Shown here one piece after another: positions 4,454 through 26,874 of a stretch of DNA of 27,180 bases. Every line of letters begins with the position of its first letter. Positions within the stretch are counted from its first letter, which is position 1. Under the pieces are notes generated by a model. That model searched no databases. It had not been told where the DNA came from and was given only the letters and a program-made list of their open reading frames with translations. The DNA lies in IMG/VR virus record IMGVR_UViG_2740892115_000003. One strand, given 5' to 3'. Position numbers and translations under genes: made by a program. This DNA is from a virus. Lineage: Duplodnaviria; Heunggongvirae; Uroviricota; Caudoviricetes.

Positions 4454-5005
4454 ATGAAACTCAAACCAATGGGTACACCTGGTGTGGCTCCGGCACATGT
4501 AAAACCATGGACACAGCAGGAGGATGAACTTTTAGCCACGTTATACCACTCCCACACAGCGCCGGAGCTGACAAAACACCTTCAGAGAACCGAGTCAGCA
4601 ATACGAAGTCGCATCCGTCTTTTGCTCTCTCAGGGGGTTATTCACGCCAAACGCCCCCACCTGAGCACAAAAGAACTCAGCATGCTCATCAGGAATCGCC
4701 ACACAAAAACTATCCGGGAACTCGCGAATGAGCTGGGGCGCTCGCCATCCACGGTGGAACTGAACCTGAGAAAAAGAGGGTATCGGTTCAGGAAATACGG
4801 GGAACTCCACCACAGAACCAGATACAGCGATCACCTGGTGGAGTTGGTAACTGAACTGCGTGATGAGAAGGGGATGACATTCAGCGAAATCAGGAAGCAC
4901 ATCCGGGACACAGCCGGGATATCCCTTAAAAGATGGGTTCCCGCCCGGCTTTACGCACGATATACCGCCGCTGACACCGTGCTTTGCGAACTGCTACCGG
5001 ACTGA
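4454..5005 (+). CDS. Putative DNA-binding protein with Myb/SANT-like and HTH-like segments
   Basis: 183 aa; AGGGAG RBS; PWTQQEDELLATLY...RTESAIRSRIRLL fits a Myb/SANT-like pattern, followed by IRELANELGRSPSTVELNLRKRG. Confidence 0.55.
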   Translation: MKLKPMGTPGVAPAHVKPWTQQEDELLATLYHSHTAPELTKHLQRTESAIRSRIRLLLSQGVIHAKRPHLSTKELSMLIRNRHTKTIRELANELGRSPSTVELNLRKRGYRFRKYGELHHRTRYSDHLVELVTELRDEKGMTFSEIRKHIRDTAGISLKRWVPARLYARYTAADTVLCELLPD

Positions 5006-5125
5006 GTAACCACTATGCACACACAAAAAAACCGCTTGCCATGCCGCAATCAGTCAGGTTACATTTTCGCTGCACCTCATAAAACGGGTGCCGGGTTTCG
5101 CAGCCTGCTGACAACCAAAGCGCAC

Positions 5126-5147
5126 AACCGCGCCAGCGGTTTTTTTG
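5126..5147 (+). terminator. Rho-independent terminator-like hairpin after the 4454-5005 gene
   Basis: Stem AACCGC (5126-5131), loop GCCA, stem GCGGTT (5136-5141), then a run of seven T (5140-5146). Confidence 0.5.
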
Positions 5148-5158
5148 TGCGTACTGTA

Positions 5159-5187
5159 TTGCCACGTTTTTTTCGCACACGAATTAT
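5159..5187 (+). promoter_or_regulatory. Candidate sigma70-type promoter immediately upstream of the structured element
   Basis: TTGCCA (5159-5164), 17-nt spacer, AATTAT (5182-5187); moderate match only. Confidence 0.3.
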
Positions 5188-5263
5188 GGCGGGGCGTACG
5201 GGGCCGACTTCGGTCGGGCCGGGTTCTTTGGTTGCCGGTACTGCGAACCCCGTACGTCTCGCC
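5188..5263 (+). ncRNA. Candidate structured RNA element (small RNA or structured 5' leader), strand-specific fold
   Basis: 16-bp closing helix 5188-5203 with 5248-5263 including two G-U pairs (only possible on the + strand RNA); inner hairpin CCGAC-TTCG-GTCGG (5204-5217); second inner stem GCCGG (5218-5222) with CCGGT (5235-5239). Confidence 0.3.
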
Positions 5264-5325
5264 ACCCACAGTTTCGCAGCTCTGGATGGTGAGTTTTCAA
5301 AACTTACAACCAAAGAGGCCACACC

Positions 5326-6000: not shown

Positions 6001-8802
6001 ATGACGGCAGAGTACATCAGGGACTGGCAACAACCGCGCCACGCGGTGGGGCGTGAAGGAACGGGGATCCCCGCTCCTGAATCCGCGCTTTCCTCCTGGC
6101 TGGGCGCCTACCGGGTAGAGAACGAGCGCCGCCAGGAAATGGCTGATGCGGCGTTCTCCGCCACGCCGCTGGGCAACCTGATTAATAAAAGCTTGGACGC
6201 ACAGGAAAAACAGGACAAAACCATCACACTGGCAGGAGACGCCAGAAAACAGGCACGCGGCGCGGTGGATGAAGCCATGGCCTCGCTGCGCCTGCTGCCG
6301 TCCTATCTGCGCGATCCGCTTATTCGCCACCTCTCCTTCCTGCGCAAAAAACAGGAAGCCGATCGCCGGAAAGGCAAAAAGAGCTGGCAGGCGGAACGCT
6401 ATGCACGCGGAACCCTGCGCAAAATATTCGAACGTCTGGACCGCACCGATCACCGCTGGCTGACACCGGGTTATCGCTCCCTTGCTGGACGCGAACGCCT
6501 GGACGATTTGCTTTACCTGCCGCAGCTCAACAAACACCAGATACAGACGCTGGCCACCATGACGGCGGCGATGTTCAGCAGCACCTTCGAAAAACTCTGC
6601 GATGGCTTTGGCGCGACTGATGGCGAACTGACCATGGATGTAACGCTGAAGGCGTATCAGATGCTGGCCCGCATGGCGTTACACCTGCACGCCATGCCTC
6701 CACATTATGACTCACTGACAACAGACAAAGACCGGAGGAACGAACCGGACACAGAGCTGCTGCCGGGCGCAATCCTTCGCCTGACCTGTGCGGAATGGTG
6801 GAAACGCAAACTATGGCTGTTACGTTGCGAGTGGAGAGAAGAACAACTCCGCGCCGCCTGTCTGGTTTCCAGAAAAACATCGCCCTATCTGAGCCAGGAC
6901 GCGTTAAGCGAGTTTCGCGCACAGCGCGAGAAAACACGCGATTTCCTGAAAAGTTTCATGCTGGAAAACGAAGACGGGTTCACGATTGATCTCGAGACAG
7001 TGTATTACGCGGGAGTAAGTAACCCGGTTCACCGTAAGGCAGAAATGATGGCCACCATGAAGGGACTGGAACTTCTGGCCGAAGCCCGTGGCGACAGAGC
7101 GGTGTTTCTGACTGTCACCTGCCCGTCAAAATACCACGCAACAACGGAGAACGGTCATCCGAACCCCAAATGGAACGGGGCCACCATGCGCGACTCCAGC
7201 GATTACCTGGTTAACACGTTTTTTGCGGCGGTCCGCAAAAAACTGAACCGCGACGGCCTGCGCTGGTATGGCATCCGCACGGTGGAGCCTCACCATGACG
7301 GCACCGTGCACTGGCATATGATGGTCTTTGCTCATCCGGAAGAAATCGACAGCATCGTGGCCATCACCCGCGATATTGCCATTCAGGAAGACCGCCACGA
7401 GCTGGGCAATGATATTACTCCGCGCTTTAAAGTGGAGTATGTCGACGGCTCAAAAGGCACACCAACCAGCTATATCGCGACCTACATCGGGAAAAACCTG
7501 GACAGCCGCGCCGTGGATGGCATCGACCCGAAAACGGGCAAACCACGCGTTGACCACGAAACCGGAAAATCAATGGCCGAGAGCGTGGAGCGCGCCATCG
7601 GTTGGGCACGCCTTCACCGGGTCCGCCAGTTCCAGTTCTTTGGCATCCCCTCCCGTCAGGTGTGGCGTGAACTCCGCCGCCTTGCCAGCCAGATGGCACG
7701 CAACCCGGAAGGCCCGCAACGGCTGAAGGATGACGCAATGGATGCGGTACTCGCTGCCGCTGATGCCGGATGTTTTGCCACCTACATAGAGAAACAGGGC
7801 GGCGTACTTGTTCCACGCAAAGACTACCTGATTCGCACCGCCTACGACCTCGCCGATGAGCTGAACGATTACGGCGAACAGAGTGTACAGATTTACGGGA
7901 TCTGGTCACCACTCATCGGGGAATCCTCCCGTGTGTGCACGCACCCGGATAACTGGAAGCTGGTAAGACGTAAACCGGAACAGGAAGGCAGCGCCCACGA
8001 AAATGGTTTTGACCTTCAGGGCGGCCCTGCCGCCCCTTGGACTCGTGGCAATAACTGTCCCCGTGTACAGGAAACGGACAACAACGGGACAGAACAGCCG
8101 GAAGAACGGCCAGCACCGTGGCCGCAGCTTCCTGACGGCGTTGACGTGAACGAATGGATGCGCTCACTGAAACGGCACGAACGCCGGGCGCTGATGCATT
8201 CGCTGCGTGACAAACAGGCAAAAAACAGCAGTGATGAAATGCAGAGCTGGACACAGAGCCGCAAACAGCAGCGGCCTTTGCCTGATAACCACGAATTACT
8301 CGCTAAAGAATGGCGGGAGTCTGCCGAATCTCTCGGCCTGCATATCGGTGAACAGCAGATGCAGCACCTGTTACGGGGCGGCAGTCTGTACGTTGACGGC
8401 AGCATCATTGCACCGCAGGGATTTGAAATTGTACGCAAACCGGATACCCGACCGGACAGCCGGATCACGCAGCTCTGGCAGCGCCTGAGCCGTAACCACG
8501 GCGTAAGCAGTACGGAGATCCGCCATAACCCGGTCGCCAGCTATCTGGAACAGCTGAGGGCATCAGACCCCGAAGCCGCCGCACGCCTGGCATCCACACT
8601 TCAGCAAGACCAGAACACCATGAAAACACCCGTTACCGTGCTTTCTGACATGCTGCGCGCCATCCGCGACGCAGAGCACGCACAGAGAATCAGTGAAACC
8701 ACTGAACGCGCCCGCCGCAAAGCAGACCTGCTGCGGGGTGGCCTGACCAGTGGAAACAAAAAACAGACAGAAACGGGATTTCAGAATCCCGTAAACGATT
8801 AA
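6001..8802 (+). CDS. A: Replication initiation endonuclease, P2 A-like (rolling-circle initiator)
   Basis: 933-aa ORF; central region carries the HUH-type metal motif VEPHHDGTVHWHMMVF and the catalytic tyrosine motif YIATYIGKN, as in the P2/186 A family. Confidence 0.9.
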   Translation: MTAEYIRDWQQPRHAVGREGTGIPAPESALSSWLGAYRVENERRQEMADAAFSATPLGNLINKSLDAQEKQDKTITLAGDARKQARGAVDEAMASLRLLPSYLRDPLIRHLSFLRKKQEADRRKGKKSWQAERYARGTLRKIFERLDRTDHRWLTPGYRSLAGRERLDDLLYLPQLNKHQIQTLATMTAAMFSSTFEKLCDGFGATDGELTMDVTLKAYQMLARMALHLHAMPPHYDSLTTDKDRRNEPDTELLPGAILRLTCAEWWKRKLWLLRCEWREEQLRAACLVSRKTSPYLSQDALSEFRAQREKTRDFLKSFMLENEDGFTIDLETVYYAGVSNPVHRKAEMMATMKGLELLAEARGDRAVFLTVTCPSKYHATTENGHPNPKWNGATMRDSSDYLVNTFFAAVRKKLNRDGLRWYGIRTVEPHHDGTVHWHMMVFAHPEEIDSIVAITRDIAIQEDRHELGNDITPRFKVEYVDGSKGTPTSYIATYIGKNLDSRAVDGIDPKTGKPRVDHETGKSMAESVERAIGWARLHRVRQFQFFGIPSRQVWRELRRLASQMARNPEGPQRLKDDAMDAVLAAADAGCFATYIEKQGGVLVPRKDYLIRTAYDLADELNDYGEQSVQIYGIWSPLIGESSRVCTHPDNWKLVRRKPEQEGSAHENGFDLQGGPAAPWTRGNNCPRVQETDNNGTEQPEERPAPWPQLPDGVDVNEWMRSLKRHERRALMHSLRDKQAKNSSDEMQSWTQSRKQQRPLPDNHELLAKEWRESAESLGLHIGEQQMQHLLRGGSLYVDGSIIAPQGFEIVRKPDTRPDSRITQLWQRLSRNHGVSSTEIRHNPVASYLEQLRASDPEAAARLASTLQQDQNTMKTPVTVLSDMLRAIRDAEHAQRISETTERARRKADLLRGGLTSGNKKQTETGFQNPVND

Positions 8803-8826
8803 TTAATCAACATAAGGAAAAGCGAC

Positions 8827-9786
8827 ATGAAAATTTGTATCGATGACGGCTCCACCAACATCAAGCTGGCATGGACTGAGAACGGCGAACGCCGCAACGC
8901 CATCAGCCCGAACAGCTTCAAGTCGGAATGGTCTGCGCCGTTCGGTGGCACGCAGCCCGCGAACTACATGCTTGATGGCGTGCGCTATGGTTTTGATCCG
9001 GTCAGCGATCGCTTTGTCCAGACGACTGACACGCAATACCAGTACAGCGATGTGAATGTCATTGCCATTCATCACGCGTTGGTCAAATCAGGCATCACGC
9101 CACAGGAGGTGGATGTGGTTGTCACCCTGCCACTGAGCGAGTATTTCGACACAAACGCACAGCCGGACATAGCCAACATCAACCGCAAAAAAGCGAACGT
9201 TATGCGCCCGGTGGAGTACCAGAACGGCGAAGCATTCACTATCCGTAACGTACGGGTTATGCCTGAATCCATTCCGGCTGGCTTTAAGGCACTGGCTGAC
9301 ATGAGTCCGTTTGAATCCCTGCTGATTGTGGATTTAGGCGGAACCACGCTGGATGTGGCAAAGGTTCAGGGACAACTGGCAGGTATCAGCCAGGTGTTTT
9401 GCGATCCACACGTAGGCGTTTCCCTGATGGCCGATGCCGTACTGTCGGTGATGGCCACTAACGGTATGCGTACCAGTCACCACATCGCCAATACCATTAT
9501 CGAACATCGCCATGATGAAGCCTGGCTGCGCCAGCACATCCACAATGACGCGCATTACGCCAGCCTGATGGCGGTTATTCGTGAAAAGGAAGAAACACTG
9601 AAACAACGCGTGATCCGCGCGCTGGCGGGTTTTTCGGGTTACGGGCGGGTGATGGTTGTCGGTGGAGGGGCGGAGATTGTGGCACCCGCTATCCGCGAAG
9701 CCTGCGGAGTTAATGCGACTTTCATCGCGGACGGGGTGCCACAGTTTGCTCTGGTTAATGGGCTGTACGCAATGGACAAGGAGTAA
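8827..9786 (+). CDS. parM: Actin-like segregation ATPase, ParM/StbA family
   Basis: 319 aa; N-terminal MKICIDDGSTNIKL and LIVDLGGTTLDV phosphate-binding motifs, ESIPAG, MVVGGGAE, and C-terminal LVNGLYA follow plasmid R1 ParM along the whole length (from memory); AAGGAAAAG RBS. Confidence 0.85.
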   Translation: MKICIDDGSTNIKLAWTENGERRNAISPNSFKSEWSAPFGGTQPANYMLDGVRYGFDPVSDRFVQTTDTQYQYSDVNVIAIHHALVKSGITPQEVDVVVTLPLSEYFDTNAQPDIANINRKKANVMRPVEYQNGEAFTIRNVRVMPESIPAGFKALADMSPFESLLIVDLGGTTLDVAKVQGQLAGISQVFCDPHVGVSLMADAVLSVMATNGMRTSHHIANTIIEHRHDEAWLRQHIHNDAHYASLMAVIREKEETLKQRVIRALAGFSGYGRVMVVGGGAEIVAPAIREACGVNATFIADGVPQFALVNGLYAMDKE

Positions 9787-9790
9787 ACCA

Positions 9791-10102
9791 ATGACGACAC
9801 CAACCAGACGGATAAGTTTCTATCTGAAGCCTGCGGCCGTCAAGAACGAAAGCGAAGCATGCGCCTGGCTGGACAGCCTTACACCAGAAGCCCGCAAAAG
9901 CGGCCAACGCGTGGCTTTTCTGGCCGGGCTGGCACTACTGAAAATGAATCCGGCAGAGGCTTACCGACTGGCTGCATGGGCTGATGATGAGGCATTATCA
10001 GTGACACAAACCAGGACAGAACGCCCCGCGTCACAGCCAGTATCAGCCGCACAGATAACCAGTCAGATGGCCGGAAATATCCGGGCGTTATTTCCCGAAT
10101 AA
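9791..10102 (+). CDS. parR: ParR-like DNA-binding adaptor (ribbon-helix-helix N-terminus)
   Basis: ATG at 9791 with AAGGAG SD, 4 nt after the parM stop; N-terminal RRISFYLKPA...LDSLTPEARKSGQRVAFLAGLALL parallels R1 ParR. The ORF-track start at 9656 lies inside parM and is rejected. Confidence 0.65.
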   Translation: MTTPTRRISFYLKPAAVKNESEACAWLDSLTPEARKSGQRVAFLAGLALLKMNPAEAYRLAAWADDEALSVTQTRTERPASQPVSAAQITSQMAGNIRALFPE

Positions 10103-10107
10103 CACAA

Positions 10108-10131
10108 CATCAGGGCGCATCCGCCCTGATG
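10108..10131. repeat. Perfect 10-bp inverted repeat with 4-nt loop just after the parR-like stop
   Basis: CATCAGGGCG-CATC-CGCCCTGATG; no T-run follows on the + strand, so it is not a canonical intrinsic terminator. Confidence 0.6.
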
Positions 10132-10165
10132 ACTTTAACCCGGGAGCATAAACAAGGGGGACACA

Positions 10166-10501
10166 ATGCAACACATTGACAGAGAAAAAGCGCAGCGACT
10201 GATTGAGCGGATGGAAGCGCTGGCGAAAGAAGAAAATGTCAACATCCAAAAAATAGCTGAATGTGGCCAGATAGTTCTTCGTCGTGAAAAAGACCTCAAA
10301 CAACTGATGTCTGGCGAAACCAGCAAAACATGGACTTCAGGCGAGAAGACGGTTTATTGCAGTTTCTGCAATAAATCCCAGTACGAAGTCACAAAGGTGA
10401 TTGCCGGACCGTCTGTTTACATCTGCAATGAGTGCGTGGATTTGTGCAATGAAATTATCAGGAAAGAAGTGACAGACCATGAAGAAAAAACGCATGAATG
10501 A
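10166..10501 (+). CDS. Small protein with C-terminal ClpX-type C4 zinc-binding domain (ClpX N-domain-like)
   Basis: 111 aa; AAGGGGG RBS; residues [39 protein letters not shown] nearly duplicate the E. coli ClpX N-terminus ([39 protein letters not shown], from memory), all four Cys retained; about 65 aa of helical N-terminus precede it. Confidence 0.8.
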
Positions 10502-10667
10502 CGAATTTGACGGCTTTTAATTTTATCGGGGCGCACTGTCGCCCTGCATGGAGAAAAACAATAAAAAAGATGAATAACTGCTCATGTCAGACGCGCTGCG
10601 GGCAAGTCTGGCACCCTGCCCTGTTTCCGCAAAGGCTGTTGTCTTAACACGACAGAGTATGCCAGCA

Positions 10668-11075
10668 TTAAATATAATCTTCTTCGTAGTCGCTGATTAA
10701 TTCATTGCCATAATCAGACAGCAATTTCAAAGCAAAGGTAACTTCCTCAAGGGTAGCTATCCCCATTGCTGAAAACACCGTTAATTTAACCAGCAGCAGG
10801 GAGTTTGAAAGTTCGGAAGAGTTCATCATTAAAAATATTGATGCAGCCTGAAAAGCTGTGCGTTTATTCCCATCATGAAAGGCATGAGCCTTGGCTATAC
10901 CAATCAAATACATAGCAGCCAGAGCATGAATATCATCAACCCCTTCATAGTAGTGTAGTGTCCTGACGCGATTTAAAGCACCTTCAAGTAGCCCGTCATT
11001 GGCATTTCCGCTCTGGGGTAAAGTTTCAGCATGGATACGTTCTACTTGTTCTTTTGACAAAAACACTATGTCCAT
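10668..11075 (-). CDS. doc: Doc-family toxin (Fic fold)
   Basis: 135 aa; motif HAFHDGNKRTA fits the Fic/Doc signature Hx(F)x(D/N)(G/A)NKR; start ATG overlaps the upstream antitoxin stop (ATGA). Confidence 0.85.
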   Translation of the reverse strand: MDIVFLSKEQVERIHAETLPQSGNANDGLLEGALNRVRTLHYYEGVDDIHALAAMYLIGIAKAHAFHDGNKRTAFQAASIFLMMNSSELSNSLLLVKLTVFSAMGIATLEEVTFALKLLSDYGNELISDYEEDYI

Positions 11076-11431
11076 CAGTTATCCTCAAGCTTTTTAATGA
11101 TATCCGCATGTTTTTCTCTTGTACGCTTCATTGCATCTTCAAAAGACAATCCTTTTTTTCTCTGTGCGACAAGAGCTGGATGACGTTTTTCCAGATCTCT
11201 CACTGCATTTATTAAGAGTGGTTGCTTCATTTTGTTTATTTGATCCCGCAGTTTTTTGGTTTTGCCAAGGACAGCCCGTATTTCAGGACTAAGATCAGAA
11301 CCAGCAAGAACAACATCCTTCCCTCCCTGCGCAGTGATAACGACACTGCCACCGGAAGAAAGGTAATCCAGAATTTCACTCAGGTTCTCACGAAATTCAT
11401 CATCAGTTACAGTTTTCATATTCATTTCCAT
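11075..11431 (-). CDS. phd: Phd/YefM-type antitoxin
   Basis: Directly upstream of and overlapping doc; N-terminal KTVTDDEFRENLSEILDYLSSGGSVVIT is Phd/YefM-like. Three in-frame ATGs (11431, 11425, 11419); exact start uncertain. Confidence 0.7.
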   Translation of the reverse strand: MEMNMKTVTDDEFRENLSEILDYLSSGGSVVITAQGGKDVVLAGSDLSPEIRAVLGKTKKLRDQINKMKQPLLINAVRDLEKRHPALVAQRKKGLSFEDAMKRTREKHADIIKKLEDN

Positions 11432-11627
11432 TATGCACGCCCATAACGTAAGTATAACGGCTTGTTGGGCAGTAATAACACCGCCATATTTTCATTTTAT
11501 ACACCGCACAATAGTGCACAAATTTGCACAATTTTTTTGAACAACTTTTTACCCTTCCGGCCCGCGTGGCGACTGGATCCGTCAGGGATCCGTGCGTGCA
11601 CAAAAAAACGCGTTTTTTCTGCGCGCA

Positions 11628-19583: not shown

Positions 19584-19725
19584 CCCACCCACATGGGGAA
19601 ACCTCGGAATATGGGGCGACCGCCTTCTGGATGCACTGGAAACCTGTAACGCGGATAAACGGGCCATTGCTGAACTGGATAAGAGAATAGCCGAACTGAC
19701 ACACCAGACGGGAGTAACACAATGA
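19414..19725 (+). CDS. o-spanin (Rz1/LysC-like outer-membrane lipoprotein)
   Basis: GTG at 19414 with GGAGAGG RBS; signal peptide ending in lipobox LLTGC; Pro-rich; overlaps the i-spanin in another frame. Confidence 0.65.
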   Translation: MNSYATILQKMNAPTLCLTLVLLTGCAGTQNAPGPAPSVRLIPQTLTMPVTPPPFPDPPTWGNLGIWGDRLLDALETCNADKRAIAELDKRIAELTHQTGVTQ

Positions 19726-21602
19726 CCAGTAAGAACTTTGCACTGATTACAGCCATGACACAGGCTGAACTGACTCAAAAGGTGAATGAACATCTTGCGA
19801 AAGGGTGGCATCTTCAGGGGGAGACGCGGGTTGCCTACGAACCCGGCACCCCGTGGTATCTAATGCAGGCAATGGTGGCCGATGGCACTACAGACATCTC
19901 ACCTGATTCCCCCCAGCACGGCAGCGTGCCGGAGTGGTATTACGTGGTGGTACTTGCTGGTCAATCCAATGCCATGTCATATGGTGATGGAATGCCGCTG
20001 CCGGATTCTTACGATGCGCCCCACCCACGCATTAAGCAACTGGCCCGTCGCAACACAGTGACTCCCGGTGGTAAAGCATGCGCATTTAACGACATCATTC
20101 CGGCAGACCACTGCCTGCATGATGTTCAGGATATGAGCGCACTGAATCATCCGAAGGCAGACCTGAGCAAAGGGCAGTACGGCTGTGTCGGCCAGGGCTT
20201 ACATATTGCCAAAAAACTGCTTCCGTATATCCCGAATAACGCGGGGATCCTGCTGGTACCATGCTGTCGTGGTGGTTCGGCATTCACCCAGGGCGCGGAG
20301 GGGACATTCAGTGCGGACACGGGGGCCAGCCAGGATTCGGCGCGCTGGGGTGCGGGTAAGCCGTTATATCAGGACCTGATCGCACGCACCAAAGCGGCAT
20401 TACAGAAGAACCCGAAAAATGTGTTGCTGGCGGTGTGCTGGATGCAGGGCGAATTTGACATGAGCGCTGCCACCTACGCACAGCAACCGGACCTGTTCAC
20501 GGCCATGCTGAAGCAGTTCCGTACTGACCTTTCCGGATTTAACGCGCAGTGCCATGGCGGCAGTGCTGCAGTTGTACCGTGGATTTGTGGCGACACGACG
20601 TATTACTGGAAAAACACATACGGCACACAGTATGACTCCGTCTACGGCGCGTACAAAAACAGGGAGAGCGACAACGTTTTCTTTGTGCCGTTCATGACCG
20701 ACGGTAACGGCAACAACACGCCCACCAACTTACCGGCAGAAGACCCGGATATTGCTGATGCAGGTTATTACGGCGCGCAATCCCGTAGTAATGGTAATTG
20801 GGTATCGTCAAATCGTCCGACACATTTCAGTTCATGGGCGCGCAGGGGCATTATTTCGGATCGCCTGGCAACCGCTATTCTGAACGCAGTTGGTCGAACC
20901 AGCGCCTTCATCAGCGGTACCGCACCGGAGATTAAACCCTCGCCCGGCGGCGACACGCCATCGGGGCCGTCTGATGGTGACACATCCGTTCGTACAGTCT
21001 CCCTGCTGCCGACAGCCGGAGAGGCTGCTGCGCAGGGCTGGACCATCACCGGCGGCAGTGTTGCGCTGGAAGATGGTGTGTTTAAGGTTACCAAGCAGAG
21101 CAATAAAACCTGGTCCCTGATGCATCCGGTGGATGACGCAGTCTCCCTGCTGACACGGGGTGGCAGACTGAGCTGTAAGTTTCGACTGTCAGGCGCACTG
21201 ACCAACAACCAGTTCGGTCTGGGAATTTATCTGTATACCGATGTAGCGTTACCTGACGTCGTGGCGATGACCGGGACTGGTAACCCGTTCCTGATGTCGT
21301 TCTTCACCCAGACCACAGACGGCAAACTGAATCTGATGCATCACAAGAAAGCCGGAAACACAAAGTTGGGCGAGTTCGGGAATTACAGTAACGACTGGCA
21401 GACGCTGGAGCTGGTGTTCACCGCCGGCAGTGCCACGGTTACTCCGAAACTGAATGGAGTGGCTGGCCCGGCATTCCAGGTCATAAAAGACAGTCTGACA
21501 CTGGGGCTGAATGCGCTGACGTTAACTGATATCACTAAAAATGCCGCGTACGGCGTCGATATCGGTAGCCTGGTGCTGGAAATCAATAATCCCGCAGCAT
21601 AA
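19722..21602 (+). CDS. Prophage NanS-p-like sialate O-acetylesterase (SGNH/SASA domain plus C-terminal beta-rich domain)
   Basis: 626 aa; N-terminal domain MTSKNFALITAMTQAELTQKVNEHLAKGWHL; esterase motif VVVLAGQSNAMSYGDG (catalytic Ser in GQSN); architecture and length match the NanS-p esterases of E. coli Stx prophages. Confidence 0.75.
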   Translation: MTSKNFALITAMTQAELTQKVNEHLAKGWHLQGETRVAYEPGTPWYLMQAMVADGTTDISPDSPQHGSVPEWYYVVVLAGQSNAMSYGDGMPLPDSYDAPHPRIKQLARRNTVTPGGKACAFNDIIPADHCLHDVQDMSALNHPKADLSKGQYGCVGQGLHIAKKLLPYIPNNAGILLVPCCRGGSAFTQGAEGTFSADTGASQDSARWGAGKPLYQDLIARTKAALQKNPKNVLLAVCWMQGEFDMSAATYAQQPDLFTAMLKQFRTDLSGFNAQCHGGSAAVVPWICGDTTYYWKNTYGTQYDSVYGAYKNRESDNVFFVPFMTDGNGNNTPTNLPAEDPDIADAGYYGAQSRSNGNWVSSNRPTHFSSWARRGIISDRLATAILNAVGRTSAFISGTAPEIKPSPGGDTPSGPSDGDTSVRTVSLLPTAGEAAAQGWTITGGSVALEDGVFKVTKQSNKTWSLMHPVDDAVSLLTRGGRLSCKFRLSGALTNNQFGLGIYLYTDVALPDVVAMTGTGNPFLMSFFTQTTDGKLNLMHHKKAGNTKLGEFGNYSNDWQTLELVFTAGSATVTPKLNGVAGPAFQVIKDSLTLGLNALTLTDITKNAAYGVDIGSLVLEINNPAA

Positions 21603-24546: not shown

Positions 24547-25147
24547 TTCGTTGTTACCACCATCAGCCAGCAATTTCATGCGTTGTGCCGAAGCCGTCGG
24601 AACACGCATTACAGACATTCCGGTAGACCTCAACACGCTGTGGTCGCCGGACACCTGCCCGGTGCATCTGCTGCCTTATCTCGCCTGGGCGTTTTCCGTT
24701 GACCGCTGGGATCGCAACTGGCCGGAAGAGACAAAGCGACAGGTGATTCGTGATGCATGGCTGATACACCGACACAAAGGGACCATCAGCGCACTGCGAA
24801 GAGCCGTGGAGCCTCTCGGCTACCTGATTGAAGTAAAGGAGTGGTGGCAACTCAACGAGGAGCCGGGAACATTTCGCATTGTTGTCGGAGTACTTGATCA
24901 GGGCATCACCGATGAAATGTATCAGGAACTTGAGCGCCTTATTGCGGATGCAAAACCAGTAAGTCGCCATCTGACGGGGCTGGCGATCAGCCTGAGTGTG
25001 AACGGAAAGATTTTCGTTGGTACGGGATGCTATCACGGCGATGCCCTGACGGTTTATCCCTACACCCCGGAGTCCATTATTGTCGAAGGGGATTATTTCC
25101 CTGCCCCGGCCATTCATTTAATTGATAATCTGAGAGTAAACGCATGA
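24539..25147 (+). CDS. I: Tail protein, P2 I-like
   Basis: ATG at 24539 overlapping the J 3' end (ORF-track 24506 is upstream in frame); 202 aa. Confidence 0.8.
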   Translation: MSNSLLPPSASNFMRCAEAVGTRITDIPVDLNTLWSPDTCPVHLLPYLAWAFSVDRWDRNWPEETKRQVIRDAWLIHRHKGTISALRRAVEPLGYLIEVKEWWQLNEEPGTFRIVVGVLDQGITDEMYQELERLIADAKPVSRHLTGLAISLSVNGKIFVGTGCYHGDALTVYPYTPESIIVEGDYFPAPAIHLIDNLRVNA

Positions 25148-26874
25148 CAGTGAAATACTACGCCATTCTGACTAATCAGGGCGCGGCACGACTGGCTAAC
25201 GCGACGATGCTCGGCAGTAAGCTGAATCTGACGCGAATGGCCGTTGGTGATGCAAATGGTGTGTTACCAACACCAGACCCTGCACAAACAAAACTGATTA
25301 ACCAGAAACGCATTGCACCGCTGAATCTTCTGAGTGTTGACCCTAACAATCAGAGCCAGATTATTGCGGAGCAAATCATCCCTGAAAGCGAGGGAGGATT
25401 CTGGATCCGTGAGATTGGTCTTTATGATGATAAAGGTGTACTCATTGCGGTGGCAAACTGCCCGGAAACGTACAAACCGCAGTTGCAGGAAGGCAGTGGA
25501 CGCACCCAGACTATCCGCATGATTCTGGTTGTCACGAACACCGAAGCCATCACGCTGAAAATCGACCCGTCTGTGGTTCTGGCAACCCGCAAATATGTGG
25601 ATGATAAAATATCAGAGCACGAGCAGTCACGACGTCACCCGGACGCCTCGCTGACCGCAAAAGGCTTTGTTCAACTTAGCAGCGCCACCAACAGCACCTC
25701 TGAAACGCTGGCCGCAACACCGAAAGCGGTTAAGGCTGCATATGACCTGGCTAACGGGAAATATACCGCTCAGGATGCGACTACGGCACGAAAAGGCCTT
25801 GTTCAACTCAGTAGCGCCACAAACAGCACGTCTGAAACGCTGGCCGCAACACCGAAAGCGGTTAAGGCTGCATATGACCTGGCTAACGGGAAATATACCG
25901 CTCAGGATGCGACTGCGGCACGAAAAGGCCTTGTTCAACTCAGTAGCGCCACAAACAGCACGTCTGAAACGCTGGCAGCGACACCAAAAGCTGTTAAGGC
26001 GGTAATGGATGAAACGAACAAGAAAGCGCCCTTAAATAGTCCTGCACTGACCGGAACGCCAACAACACCAACTGCGCGACAGGGAACGAATAATACCCAA
26101 ATCGCAAGCACGGCTTTCGTTATGGCTGCGATTGCCGCCCTTGTAGATTCGTCACCTGATGCACTGAACACGCTGAACGAGCTGGCTGCGGCGCTGGGCA
26201 ACGACCCGAATTTTGCGACCACCATAACTAACGCGCTTGCGGGTAAGCAACCGAAGGATGCCACCCTGACGGCGCTGGCGGAGCTTGCTACATCAGCAGA
26301 TAAACTCCCATATTTTAAAGGGGCAGATCGTGCCGCGTTAACTGCACTGACAAGTGTTGGACGCGCCATTCTTGGTAAGACCAGTATTCAGAGCGTTCTT
26401 GATTACCTTGGTTTGGGGGAAGGCTCTGCATTGCCTGTTGGTGTACCGGTTCCATGGCCCACCGCCACACCGCCAGCAGGCTGGTTACAGTGCAACGGAG
26501 CTACGTTCACCAAAGAACAATATCCTGTTCTGGCCAGAGTCTACCCGACCCTCCGTCTTCCCGATTTACGCGGTGAGTTTATCCGTGGATGGGACGGTGG
26601 TCGCAAGGTTGATACCGGGCGTGCGCTACTTTCATTTCAGGAAGGGACTATCGTATCCGGTTTTGATGATAATGATACCGGAGATATCAGTTCGCTCGGC
26701 TCTACACAATACGGATTTGGTGACGCTTTAACCTCTAATCAACTGGGGGTCATAAATGGCAAAAAGTGGATATTTGATGCATCCTCTAAAGGTGCACGAA
26801 GACATGACTGGTGGGCTTATGTATCAGCTCGCCCCCGCAATATCGCATTTAACTATATCGTGAGGGCGGCGTGA
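25144..26874 (+). CDS. H: Tail fibre protein, P2 H-like, with internal tandem repeats and a variable receptor-binding C-terminus
   Basis: 576 aa; conserved H-type N-terminus (MTVKYYAILTNQGAARLANA...); C-terminal PWP...GWL.CNG..F....YP.L...YP.LRLPDLRGEFIRGWDGGR is the common tail-fibre distal-domain pattern. Confidence 0.85.
   Translation: MTVKYYAILTNQGAARLANATMLGSKLNLTRMAVGDANGVLPTPDPAQTKLINQKRIAPLNLLSVDPNNQSQIIAEQIIPESEGGFWIREIGLYDDKGVLIAVANCPETYKPQLQEGSGRTQTIRMILVVTNTEAITLKIDPSVVLATRKYVDDKISEHEQSRRHPDASLTAKGFVQLSSATNSTSETLAATPKAVKAAYDLANGKYTAQDATTARKGLVQLSSATNSTSETLAATPKAVKAAYDLANGKYTAQDATAARKGLVQLSSATNSTSETLAATPKAVKAVMDETNKKAPLNSPALTGTPTTPTARQGTNNTQIASTAFVMAAIAALVDSSPDALNTLNELAAALGNDPNFATTITNALAGKQPKDATLTALAELATSADKLPYFKGADRAALTALTSVGRAILGKTSIQSVLDYLGLGEGSALPVGVPVPWPTATPPAGWLQCNGATFTKEQYPVLARVYPTLRLPDLRGEFIRGWDGGRKVDTGRALLSFQEGTIVSGFDDNDTGDISSLGSTQYGFGDALTSNQLGVINGKKWIFDASSKGARRHDWWAYVSARPRNIAFNYIVRAA
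25659..26000 (+). repeat. Tandem 132-bp repeats (about 2.6 copies) inside the tail fibre gene
   Basis: Near-identical units encoding KGFVQLSSATNSTSETLAATPKAVKAAYDLANGKYTAQDATTAR start near 25659 and 25792, with a partial third from about 25923. Confidence 0.8.

Follow-up and report, generated by a model that had tools for sequence, protein, structure and literature searches.

The window analysed here is a 27,180-nucleotide stretch of DNA (IMG/VR virus record IMGVR_UViG_2740892115_000003) from a P88-type P2-like prophage of Escherichia coli (Xuanwuvirus, Peduoviridae). At 100% identity, the sequence matches a prophage adjoining pdxB in NZ_OZ039818.1; the complete prophage there has a length of 39 kb and carries an integrase. 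The subject of this analysis is a pair of genes located directly downstream of the replication gene A, parM and parR (together parMR), and the palindromic elements on both sides of the pair. The genes and elements of the locus, with coordinates in the window, are the following.

6001-8802, plus strand: gene A, rolling-circle replication endonuclease (Pfam Phage_GPA, 1.7e-130), 933 residues here and 940 residues in P88
8764-8799, no strand assigned: single surviving repeat unit of ~28-36 nt (CAGACAGAAACGGGATTTCAGAATCCCGTAAACGA), with the deletion junction within its left part
8773-8792, no strand assigned: palindrome ACGGGATT-TCAG-AATCCCGT (= ACGGGATTTCAGAATCCCGT) with 8-bp arms, a candidate ParR site (operator or half of a minimal parC centromere)
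8798-8810, plus strand: AT-rich box ATTAATTAATCAA (ATTAATCAA), invariant in a four-genus alignment
8814-8819, plus strand: ribosome-binding site (RBS) of parM, AAGGAA, read from the sequence and kept in relatives
8827-9786, plus strand: parM, actin-like ATPase of 319 residues (Pfam StbA_N, 3.6e-82; ParM C-terminal domain, 1.3e-68)
9791-10102, plus strand: parR (StbB family), centromere-binding adaptor of 103 residues (Pfam PF10784, Plasmid_stab_B, 1.6e-24; PHROG 2515, 'partition protein')
10108-10131, no strand assigned: perfect inverted repeat with a 10-bp stem, at the end of the block conserved among relatives
10166-10501, plus strand: ClpX zinc-finger-domain protein of 111 residues (Pfam zf-C4_ClpX, 7e-18), the first gene of the variable A-Q hotspot

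The ParM-ParR pair and its distribution

The ParM protein can be aligned end to end with ParM of plasmid R1 (PDB entry 1mwk), with an E value of 9e-93. The motifs DDGSTN, PESIPAG, DLGGTTLD and GGGAE are conserved relative to R1 ParM, and these positions are invariant in 19 homologues. A type II partition ATPase is recognized by an actin fold with intact phosphate-1, connect and phosphate-2/adenosine motifs, and ParM has all of these. In the population, ParM has 319 residues in 80 of 80 copies, all of them intact, and its ratio of nonsynonymous to synonymous polymorphism (pN/pS) is 0.05. An earlier note on this DNA had taken DDGSTN and DLGGTT as signs of a probably active ATPase and had named inactive motifs as the mark of a decaying gene; the conservation of both motifs supports the first suggestion, and the signs of decay were looked for and are absent.

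The parR gene starts 4 nt past parM, and its pN/pS is 0.33-0.38 among the 80 population copies. The two ends of the ParR protein are invariant, with MTTPTRRISFYLKPA (RRISFYLKP) at the N terminus, the putative DNA-binding part, and NI(R/Q)xxFPE (NIRALFPE here) at the C terminus. By its position, we take the C-terminal motif to match the ParM-binding helix of R1 ParR. The gene is a mosaic, as seen at 9791-10102 in the window, at 4965-5276 in locus L003 and in loci L062-L141: the first ~17 and the last ~8 codons are invariant, and the middle is swapped among allele classes (103 or 104 residues, ~54% identity). As ParM stays 99% identical while the middle of parR is exchanged, the recombination breakpoints lie inside parR. 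A sequence search of the PDB finds no match for ParR. The AlphaFold2 model of the monomer has helices at residues 20-61, a disordered linker and a C-terminal helix at residues 86-100, all at low confidence (mean predicted local distance difference test score, pLDDT, of 56).

Of 5426 complete E. coli genomes, 1303 (24%) contain parM DNA, as do 14 phage records. For P88-type gene A the count is 1374 E. coli genomes, and parM accompanies ~94% of the P88-type A copies. The phage-borne ParM proteins form one clade with two subclades, and their gene is always positioned between A and the portal gene, in phages of E. coli, Salmonella, Citrobacter, Hafnia, Plesiomonas, Serratia and Enterobacter. ParM and ParR are a genuine and probably active pair. 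Moreover, the pN/pS of ParM, the invariant ends of ParR and the linkage between A and parM argue that parMR is a selected core function rather than decaying cargo.

The pair is not new. It is mostly a well-annotated and previously noted feature: the RefSeq labels are "plasmid segregation protein ParM" and "plasmid partitioning/stability family protein", and PHROGs families exist for both proteins. Rousset et al. 2022 (PMC9122126) mention a 'putative plasmid partitioning system' located between gpA and gpQ in P2-like prophages of E. coli; they report it for about a quarter of P2-like phages and suggest that it may allow plasmid maintenance. This system is the same module, and it is given one sentence there, which does not treat the centromere, how well the module is conserved or the gene A type to which it is linked. 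Our literature search found no paper on the centromere or function of phage parMR.

Gene A has the RefSeq label 'replication endonuclease' and is 97% identical to A of P88. The next-closest gpA proteins are 42-43% identical to it, over residues 9-796 only, and the C-terminal ~135 residues (~797-933, window 8390-8802) have no counterpart in them. This C-terminal extension is specific to P88-type phages.

A separate observation concerns the free form of these phages. One 'plasmid' of an E. coli isolate (NZ_CP148288.1; locus L151, 1-34461), recorded as circular, 34.5 kb long and non-mobilizable, is a complete P88-like genome. It carries the integrase, A, parMR and the structural genes, and the circle is closed at the att junction (attP) and not at cos. 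By this record, an excised P88-like circle can be abundant.

Palindromes upstream of parM and the 73-bp deletion

The TAA stop codon of A (8800-8802) is separated from the ATG of parM (8827) by a spacer of 24 nt, and the palindrome at 8773-8792 is located within the last 10 codons of A. This close spacing with the RBS in between, the hairpin at 8773-8792 and the inverted repeat at 10108-10131 had all been described in the earlier note, and each is found as described. As a general picture of the locus, however, a junction with nothing except an RBS applies to a deletion variant only. In P88 and in ~99% of relatives the spacer has 76 nt, and the alignment of the window with P88 shows a clean gap of exactly 73 bp between two direct copies of a repeat unit. 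The unit has ~28 nt (CAGAAACGGGAyTyAsGAATCCCGyAAAyGA) and holds the palindrome ACGGGATT-N4-AATCCCGT. The 73 bp were lost by recombination between the two copies.

The normal form consists of one dyad over the last codons of A (D1), a central GC-rich dyad and another dyad ~40-55 nt before the parM ATG (D2), with a D1-D2 spacing of about 70-73 bp. The central dyad shows a compensatory change from G-C to A-T in one variant. The hairpin in the window is the surviving D1/D2 recombinant. Among complete E. coli genomes, 1044 contain the segment that is missing here. An unbroken match across the deleted junction was obtained for ~5 of the ~1270 complete genomes that have the A-parM junction. One further case, among 80 IMG/VR loci, is on a different allele and hence independent. 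The 24-nt spacer is a derived state, produced by a rare deletion. With one dyad left here, the centromere function may be weakened and an operator function could remain, although this is speculation.

No R1-style iteron array is present at the locus. A repeat search of 8000-11000 and Tandem Repeats Finder on the window both find none. The prophage-wide search for direct-repeat arrays that the earlier note had called for, carried out as a scan for k-mer clusters in the whole 39-kb prophage, also gives no parC-like array; this is a weak test, as the scan detected the controls weakly or missed them (4 copies were recovered in 2 of 5 controls, and the R1-type locus L030 was missed). When ~20 plasmid relatives (ParM 41-53% identical) are inspected by eye, they have arrays of 11-bp repeats flanking a TTGACA/TATAAT promoter directly upstream of parM, and an R1-type locus is one of these controls. 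The clusters left in the scan are rejected as parC, being TGCACAA repeats upstream of phd or repeats inside coding regions only. The TGCACAA repeats (3-4 repeats with a period of ~10-13, at 11506-11603) are probably the phd operator. The suggestion that the pair has no upstream centromere therefore stands with respect to R1-style iterons, and it does not hold for the normal form, which has two palindromes and the central GC-rich dyad. The hairpin that had been set aside is now the best candidate for parC or an operator.

Several observations single out these palindromes. The 8773-8792 palindrome occurs once in the window, where 0 matches are expected by chance, and a search of the 39-kb prophage for a second copy found none. 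The 150 nt upstream of parM were aligned for four genera, E. albertii (Escherichia), Salmonella, Hafnia and Plesiomonas. The invariant positions cluster in GGGA..AAnCCC (D1), CGGG..AnCCC (D2), ATTAAT and the RBS; the distance of ~70 bp between the two palindromes is likewise kept, and the remainder has diverged. In phages of E. coli, Salmonella, Hafnia and Plesiomonas the arms of the palindromes are constant, and the loops and flanks diverge. The element stays beside parM where other genes part parM from A, as in Hafnia and Enterobacter, and it is absent downstream of A in Cartapus, a P2-like phage without parMR. At that place (4930-4970 of locus L142) Cartapus has a LexA-box-like sequence, TACTGTAAATATAAACAGT, after A and ahead of a small open reading frame and dinI; it reads as a dinI promoter, and no series of terminator-like dyads follows A in this phage.

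The upstream element also differs with the N terminus of ParR. All members of the E. coli/Hafnia/Plesiomonas subclade have TRR(I/V)SFYL at the ParR N terminus. The Serratia/Enterobacter subclade has NRKISFYLKPAHSR there and a different conserved upstream element, a 19-bp inverted repeat (A/G)GGAACGAnATAGAAAAAT ... ATTTTTCTnTTTCGTTCC(C/T) with a symmetric base change. In addition, the plasmid relatives L007 and L011 have a parC made of palindromes with the same geometry, TCTCA-N4-TGAGA. The dyads are the best candidate for a minimal parC or operator because of the synteny across the clade, the conserved arms, the movement of the element together with parM, the co-variation with the ParR N terminus, the likeness to the plasmid loci and the uniqueness in the prophage; they are putative binding sites of ParR.

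The AT-rich box at 8798-8810 may serve as a weak -10 element for a promoter close to parM; TTCAGA is located 16 nt upstream of it, inside the palindrome. It is under the threshold of the promoter scan, with 8 of 12 matches by our own count. Rfam gives nothing for the A-parM-parR region even at E values up to 1. The nick sequence of the P2 origin has no match, and the variable loops disfavour the dyads as a nick site.

The hairpin after parR and the hotspot border

The inverted repeat at 10108-10131 folds as RNA with -20.5 / -25.3 kcal/mol (z of ~-4.5). It resembles a terminator on the minus strand, where it has the U-rich tail TTGTGTTATT, and not on the plus strand. The homology of many relatives stops here. 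The hairpin is missing in relatives that have a different parR allele with the same ParM, and where it is present the loops are variable and the stem shows one compensatory change from G-C to A-T. Its probable function, as a terminator or insulator, is to stop transcripts that run leftward out of the variable hotspot. This palindrome had been proposed as a possible ParR target, and a role as centromere is unlikely given its absence with the other ParR allele, the compensatory stem change, the variable loops and the minus-strand U tail.

The gene at 10166-10501 is outside the partition core. The stretch through it is covered by 113 of 1376 matching records (~8% of P88-type prophages). The C-terminal half of its product is the N-terminal C4 zinc finger of ClpX, without the ATPase part, and the protein could mimic or titrate the substrate- or adaptor-binding domain of ClpX. 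PHROGs gives the protein a family of its own, of unknown function, and the P88 annotation, 'carboxylate-amine ligase', is mistaken. For the mining of P2 hotspots, the interval from gpA to the hairpin is best treated as phage core and not as defence-hotspot cargo.

Other features lie elsewhere in the window. Rfam identifies an isrK Hfq-binding RNA at 5072-5146 (plus strand, 65.9 bits), followed by a C4 antisense RNA at 5182-5269 (87.1 bits). They are within the early operon, adjoining an 'ash family' pseudogene and upstream of orf121 and A, and the two look like a c4-style antisense immunity or anti-repressor control module of the P1/P7 type. A DUF6645 protein gene (626 residues, 19722-21602, plus strand) is found between the lysis and tail genes, a non-standard position for P2. 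The tail fibre gene at 25144-26874 (576 residues) contains a 132-nt tandem repeat at 25659-26000, with 2.6 copies and a 95% match.

Possible role and relation to known systems

The favoured explanation is that parMR is a functional type II (ParM-ParR) partition module and a core component of P2-like temperate phages of the P88 type (Xuanwuvirus and relatives), an explanation to which we assign a probability of roughly 60%. No promoter or plus-strand terminator is predicted between A and parM, and the pair is therefore probably co-transcribed with A, at the end of the early replication operon. It would be expressed while the genome is a free circle in A-dependent rolling-circle replication, after infection or excision. 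ParR dimers would sit on the GGGATT-N4-AATCCC palindromes that shortly precede parM, and through its conserved C-terminal helix ParR would link the bound DNA to growing ParM filaments. The filaments could then push sister circles apart or position them, with less loss of the excised or unintegrated genome at cell division, or better replication or packaging, as the outcome. The proximal palindrome overlaps the weak promoter-like element and would probably serve as an autoregulatory operator as well. We infer that parMR most likely serves to partition or position the phage circle once this has been excised and is replicated through A.

A more specific version is tentative, and we think it less likely than not: P88-type phages would have a stripped-down ParMRC with a two-palindrome centromere, for actively moving monomeric circles during the life cycle and not for plasmid maintenance. 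Were this true, an integrating phage would have a cytoskeletal step, in the establishment of lysogeny, in a carrier state, or in replication or packaging. The 73-bp deletion, which recurs, would then amount to a natural allele with reduced centromere function, and the two-palindrome element, if it is the centromere, would be among the smallest of type II.

Several points weigh against the partition reading. Two palindromes (one here), compared with the 10 iterons of R1, offer far fewer sites and may be too few to build a ParR ring. The AlphaFold2 model of ParR is too poor for confirmation of a ribbon-helix-helix fold. The arm variants in the population are only single-sided transitions, with G-U on either strand and without clear RNA covariation in the dyads. 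The co-variation between the ParR N terminus and the upstream repeat is seen in two phage subclades only, a sample that stays small as almost nothing close to the Hafnia and Plesiomonas ParM proteins was found in IMG/VR. The parM gene is chromosomal at 1441 of its 1443 places in complete E. coli genomes (>99.8% of copies), so that plasmid-like maintenance is not the usual state and the phage does not belong with the phage-plasmids, prophages normally kept as plasmids. Finally, in the P88-type as well as the Serratia-type loci an A-run precedes each dyad, and the minus strand looks like a series of tandem intrinsic terminators.

The last point leads to the explanation that ranks second, which we nevertheless regard as unlikely. 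The upstream palindromes and the hairpin after parR would be terminators of leftward antisense transcripts from late or hotspot genes, shielding the early operon. The dyads would then not be ParR sites, and the true centromere would be absent or ParR would bind DNA with low specificity. On the minus strand the P88 dyads (3293-3274 and 3366-3347 in P88) and those in the window (8792-8773 and 10131-10108) do score as a hairpin with a T-rich tail, and the region has 10-12 terminator-like sites where 3-4 are expected. The Serratia relatives have an A-run followed by a GC hairpin three times, and two variants of the first copy in P88 form G-U pairs when read on the minus strand but not on the plus strand. 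Evidence of the opposite kind comes from the commonest D2 variant (..AATCCTGT), which leaves a mismatch on the minus strand and a G-U pair on the plus strand. Phages of Hafnia and Plesiomonas keep the arms, but their A-run is missing or on the other side, and these palindromes therefore cannot terminate minus-strand transcripts. Nor does any minus-strand gene lie between parR and A for which three successive terminators would be needed. A terminator role and binding by ParR can coexist.

Somewhat less probable again is a mainly lytic role, as for AlpAC of prophage CGP3 and for PhuZ, in which parMR moves or positions replicating monomeric circles for replication or packaging and not for inheritance. 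The location of parMR at the end of the early operon, adjoining A, agrees with such a role. It counts in its favour as well that phages of the P2 type replicate to monomeric circles and that these are what is packaged. Nearly all copies are integrated, plasmid-like maintenance being rare, and loss of AlpAC halves the phage copy number (PMC4446434). Against these stand the close, full-length homology of ParM to R1 ParM and the fact that most other P2-like genera do without parMR. The known activity of R1 ParM is bipolar pushing of plasmid pairs, which also speaks for inheritance over a lytic role.

That parMR is hotspot cargo, either an anti-phage or anti-plasmid (incompatibility) device or a decaying remnant, is very improbable. 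The pair does lie within the gpA-gpQ interval that is treated as a defence hotspot (PMC9122126), and defence-type cargo, a toxin-antitoxin pair of Doc (Fic family) and Phd, is located downstream of it (10668-11431, minus strand). However, neither ParM nor ParR has a PADLOC match, and across genera parMR goes together with this type of gene A, the cargo past the hairpin being the part that varies. The pair thus shows neither the known family match nor the variable presence of a defence system, and repurposing for defence, which had been raised as an option in the earlier note, loses its footing here. Decay is excluded by the pN/pS of 0.05 for ParM and the 80 intact copies out of 80.

The partition reading is best judged beside the systems that parMR resembles. 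The closest is ParMRC (StbA/StbB) of plasmids R1 and NR1. ParM is homologous over its full length with all the ATPase motifs, and ParR belongs to the same PF10784 family, is encoded immediately downstream, and has a conserved, putative N-terminal β-strand region and a predicted C-terminal helix of the ParM-binding type. The candidate cis element of the phage is upstream of parM, as is parC in R1/NR1. In R1/NR1, however, this element consists of ten 11-bp direct iterons flanking a strong promoter, while the phage has two palindromes ~73 bp apart (one here). Moreover, the phage module is at the 3′ end of a rolling-circle replication operon, on an integrating prophage.

AlpAC/alpS of the Corynebacterium prophage CGP3 (Donovan et al. 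2015, PMC4446434) is similar in being a prophage pair of an actin-like ATPase and a DNA-binding adaptor, the target of the adaptor being repeats that precede the operon encoding it. AlpAC acts on excised circular phage DNA, as is proposed here for parMR. In comparison, it belongs to another actin family, its adaptor gene comes first, alpS consists of 24 short repeats, and the role shown for it is efficient replication and not partition.

In the srpMRC module of the SXT/R391 elements (Carraro et al. 2015, PMC4489591), the srpM leader contains only four 13-bp repeats. The module is expressed with the excision operon and stabilises the element after excision, when it replicates as a rolling circle. 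The likeness lies in an actin-type module on a normally integrated element with a rolling-circle initiator, expressed together with excision or replication functions, co-expression being probable for the phage. SrpM and SrpR are only distantly related to R1 ParM and ParR, whereas the phage pair is a close relative. The function of srpMRC, borne on an integrative and conjugative element (ICE), was shown experimentally (PMC4489591), and the phage pair is known from its sequence. If the two-palindrome element is the centromere, an integrating rolling-circle phage would be seen to invest in active DNA segregation, like the SXT/R391 ICEs.

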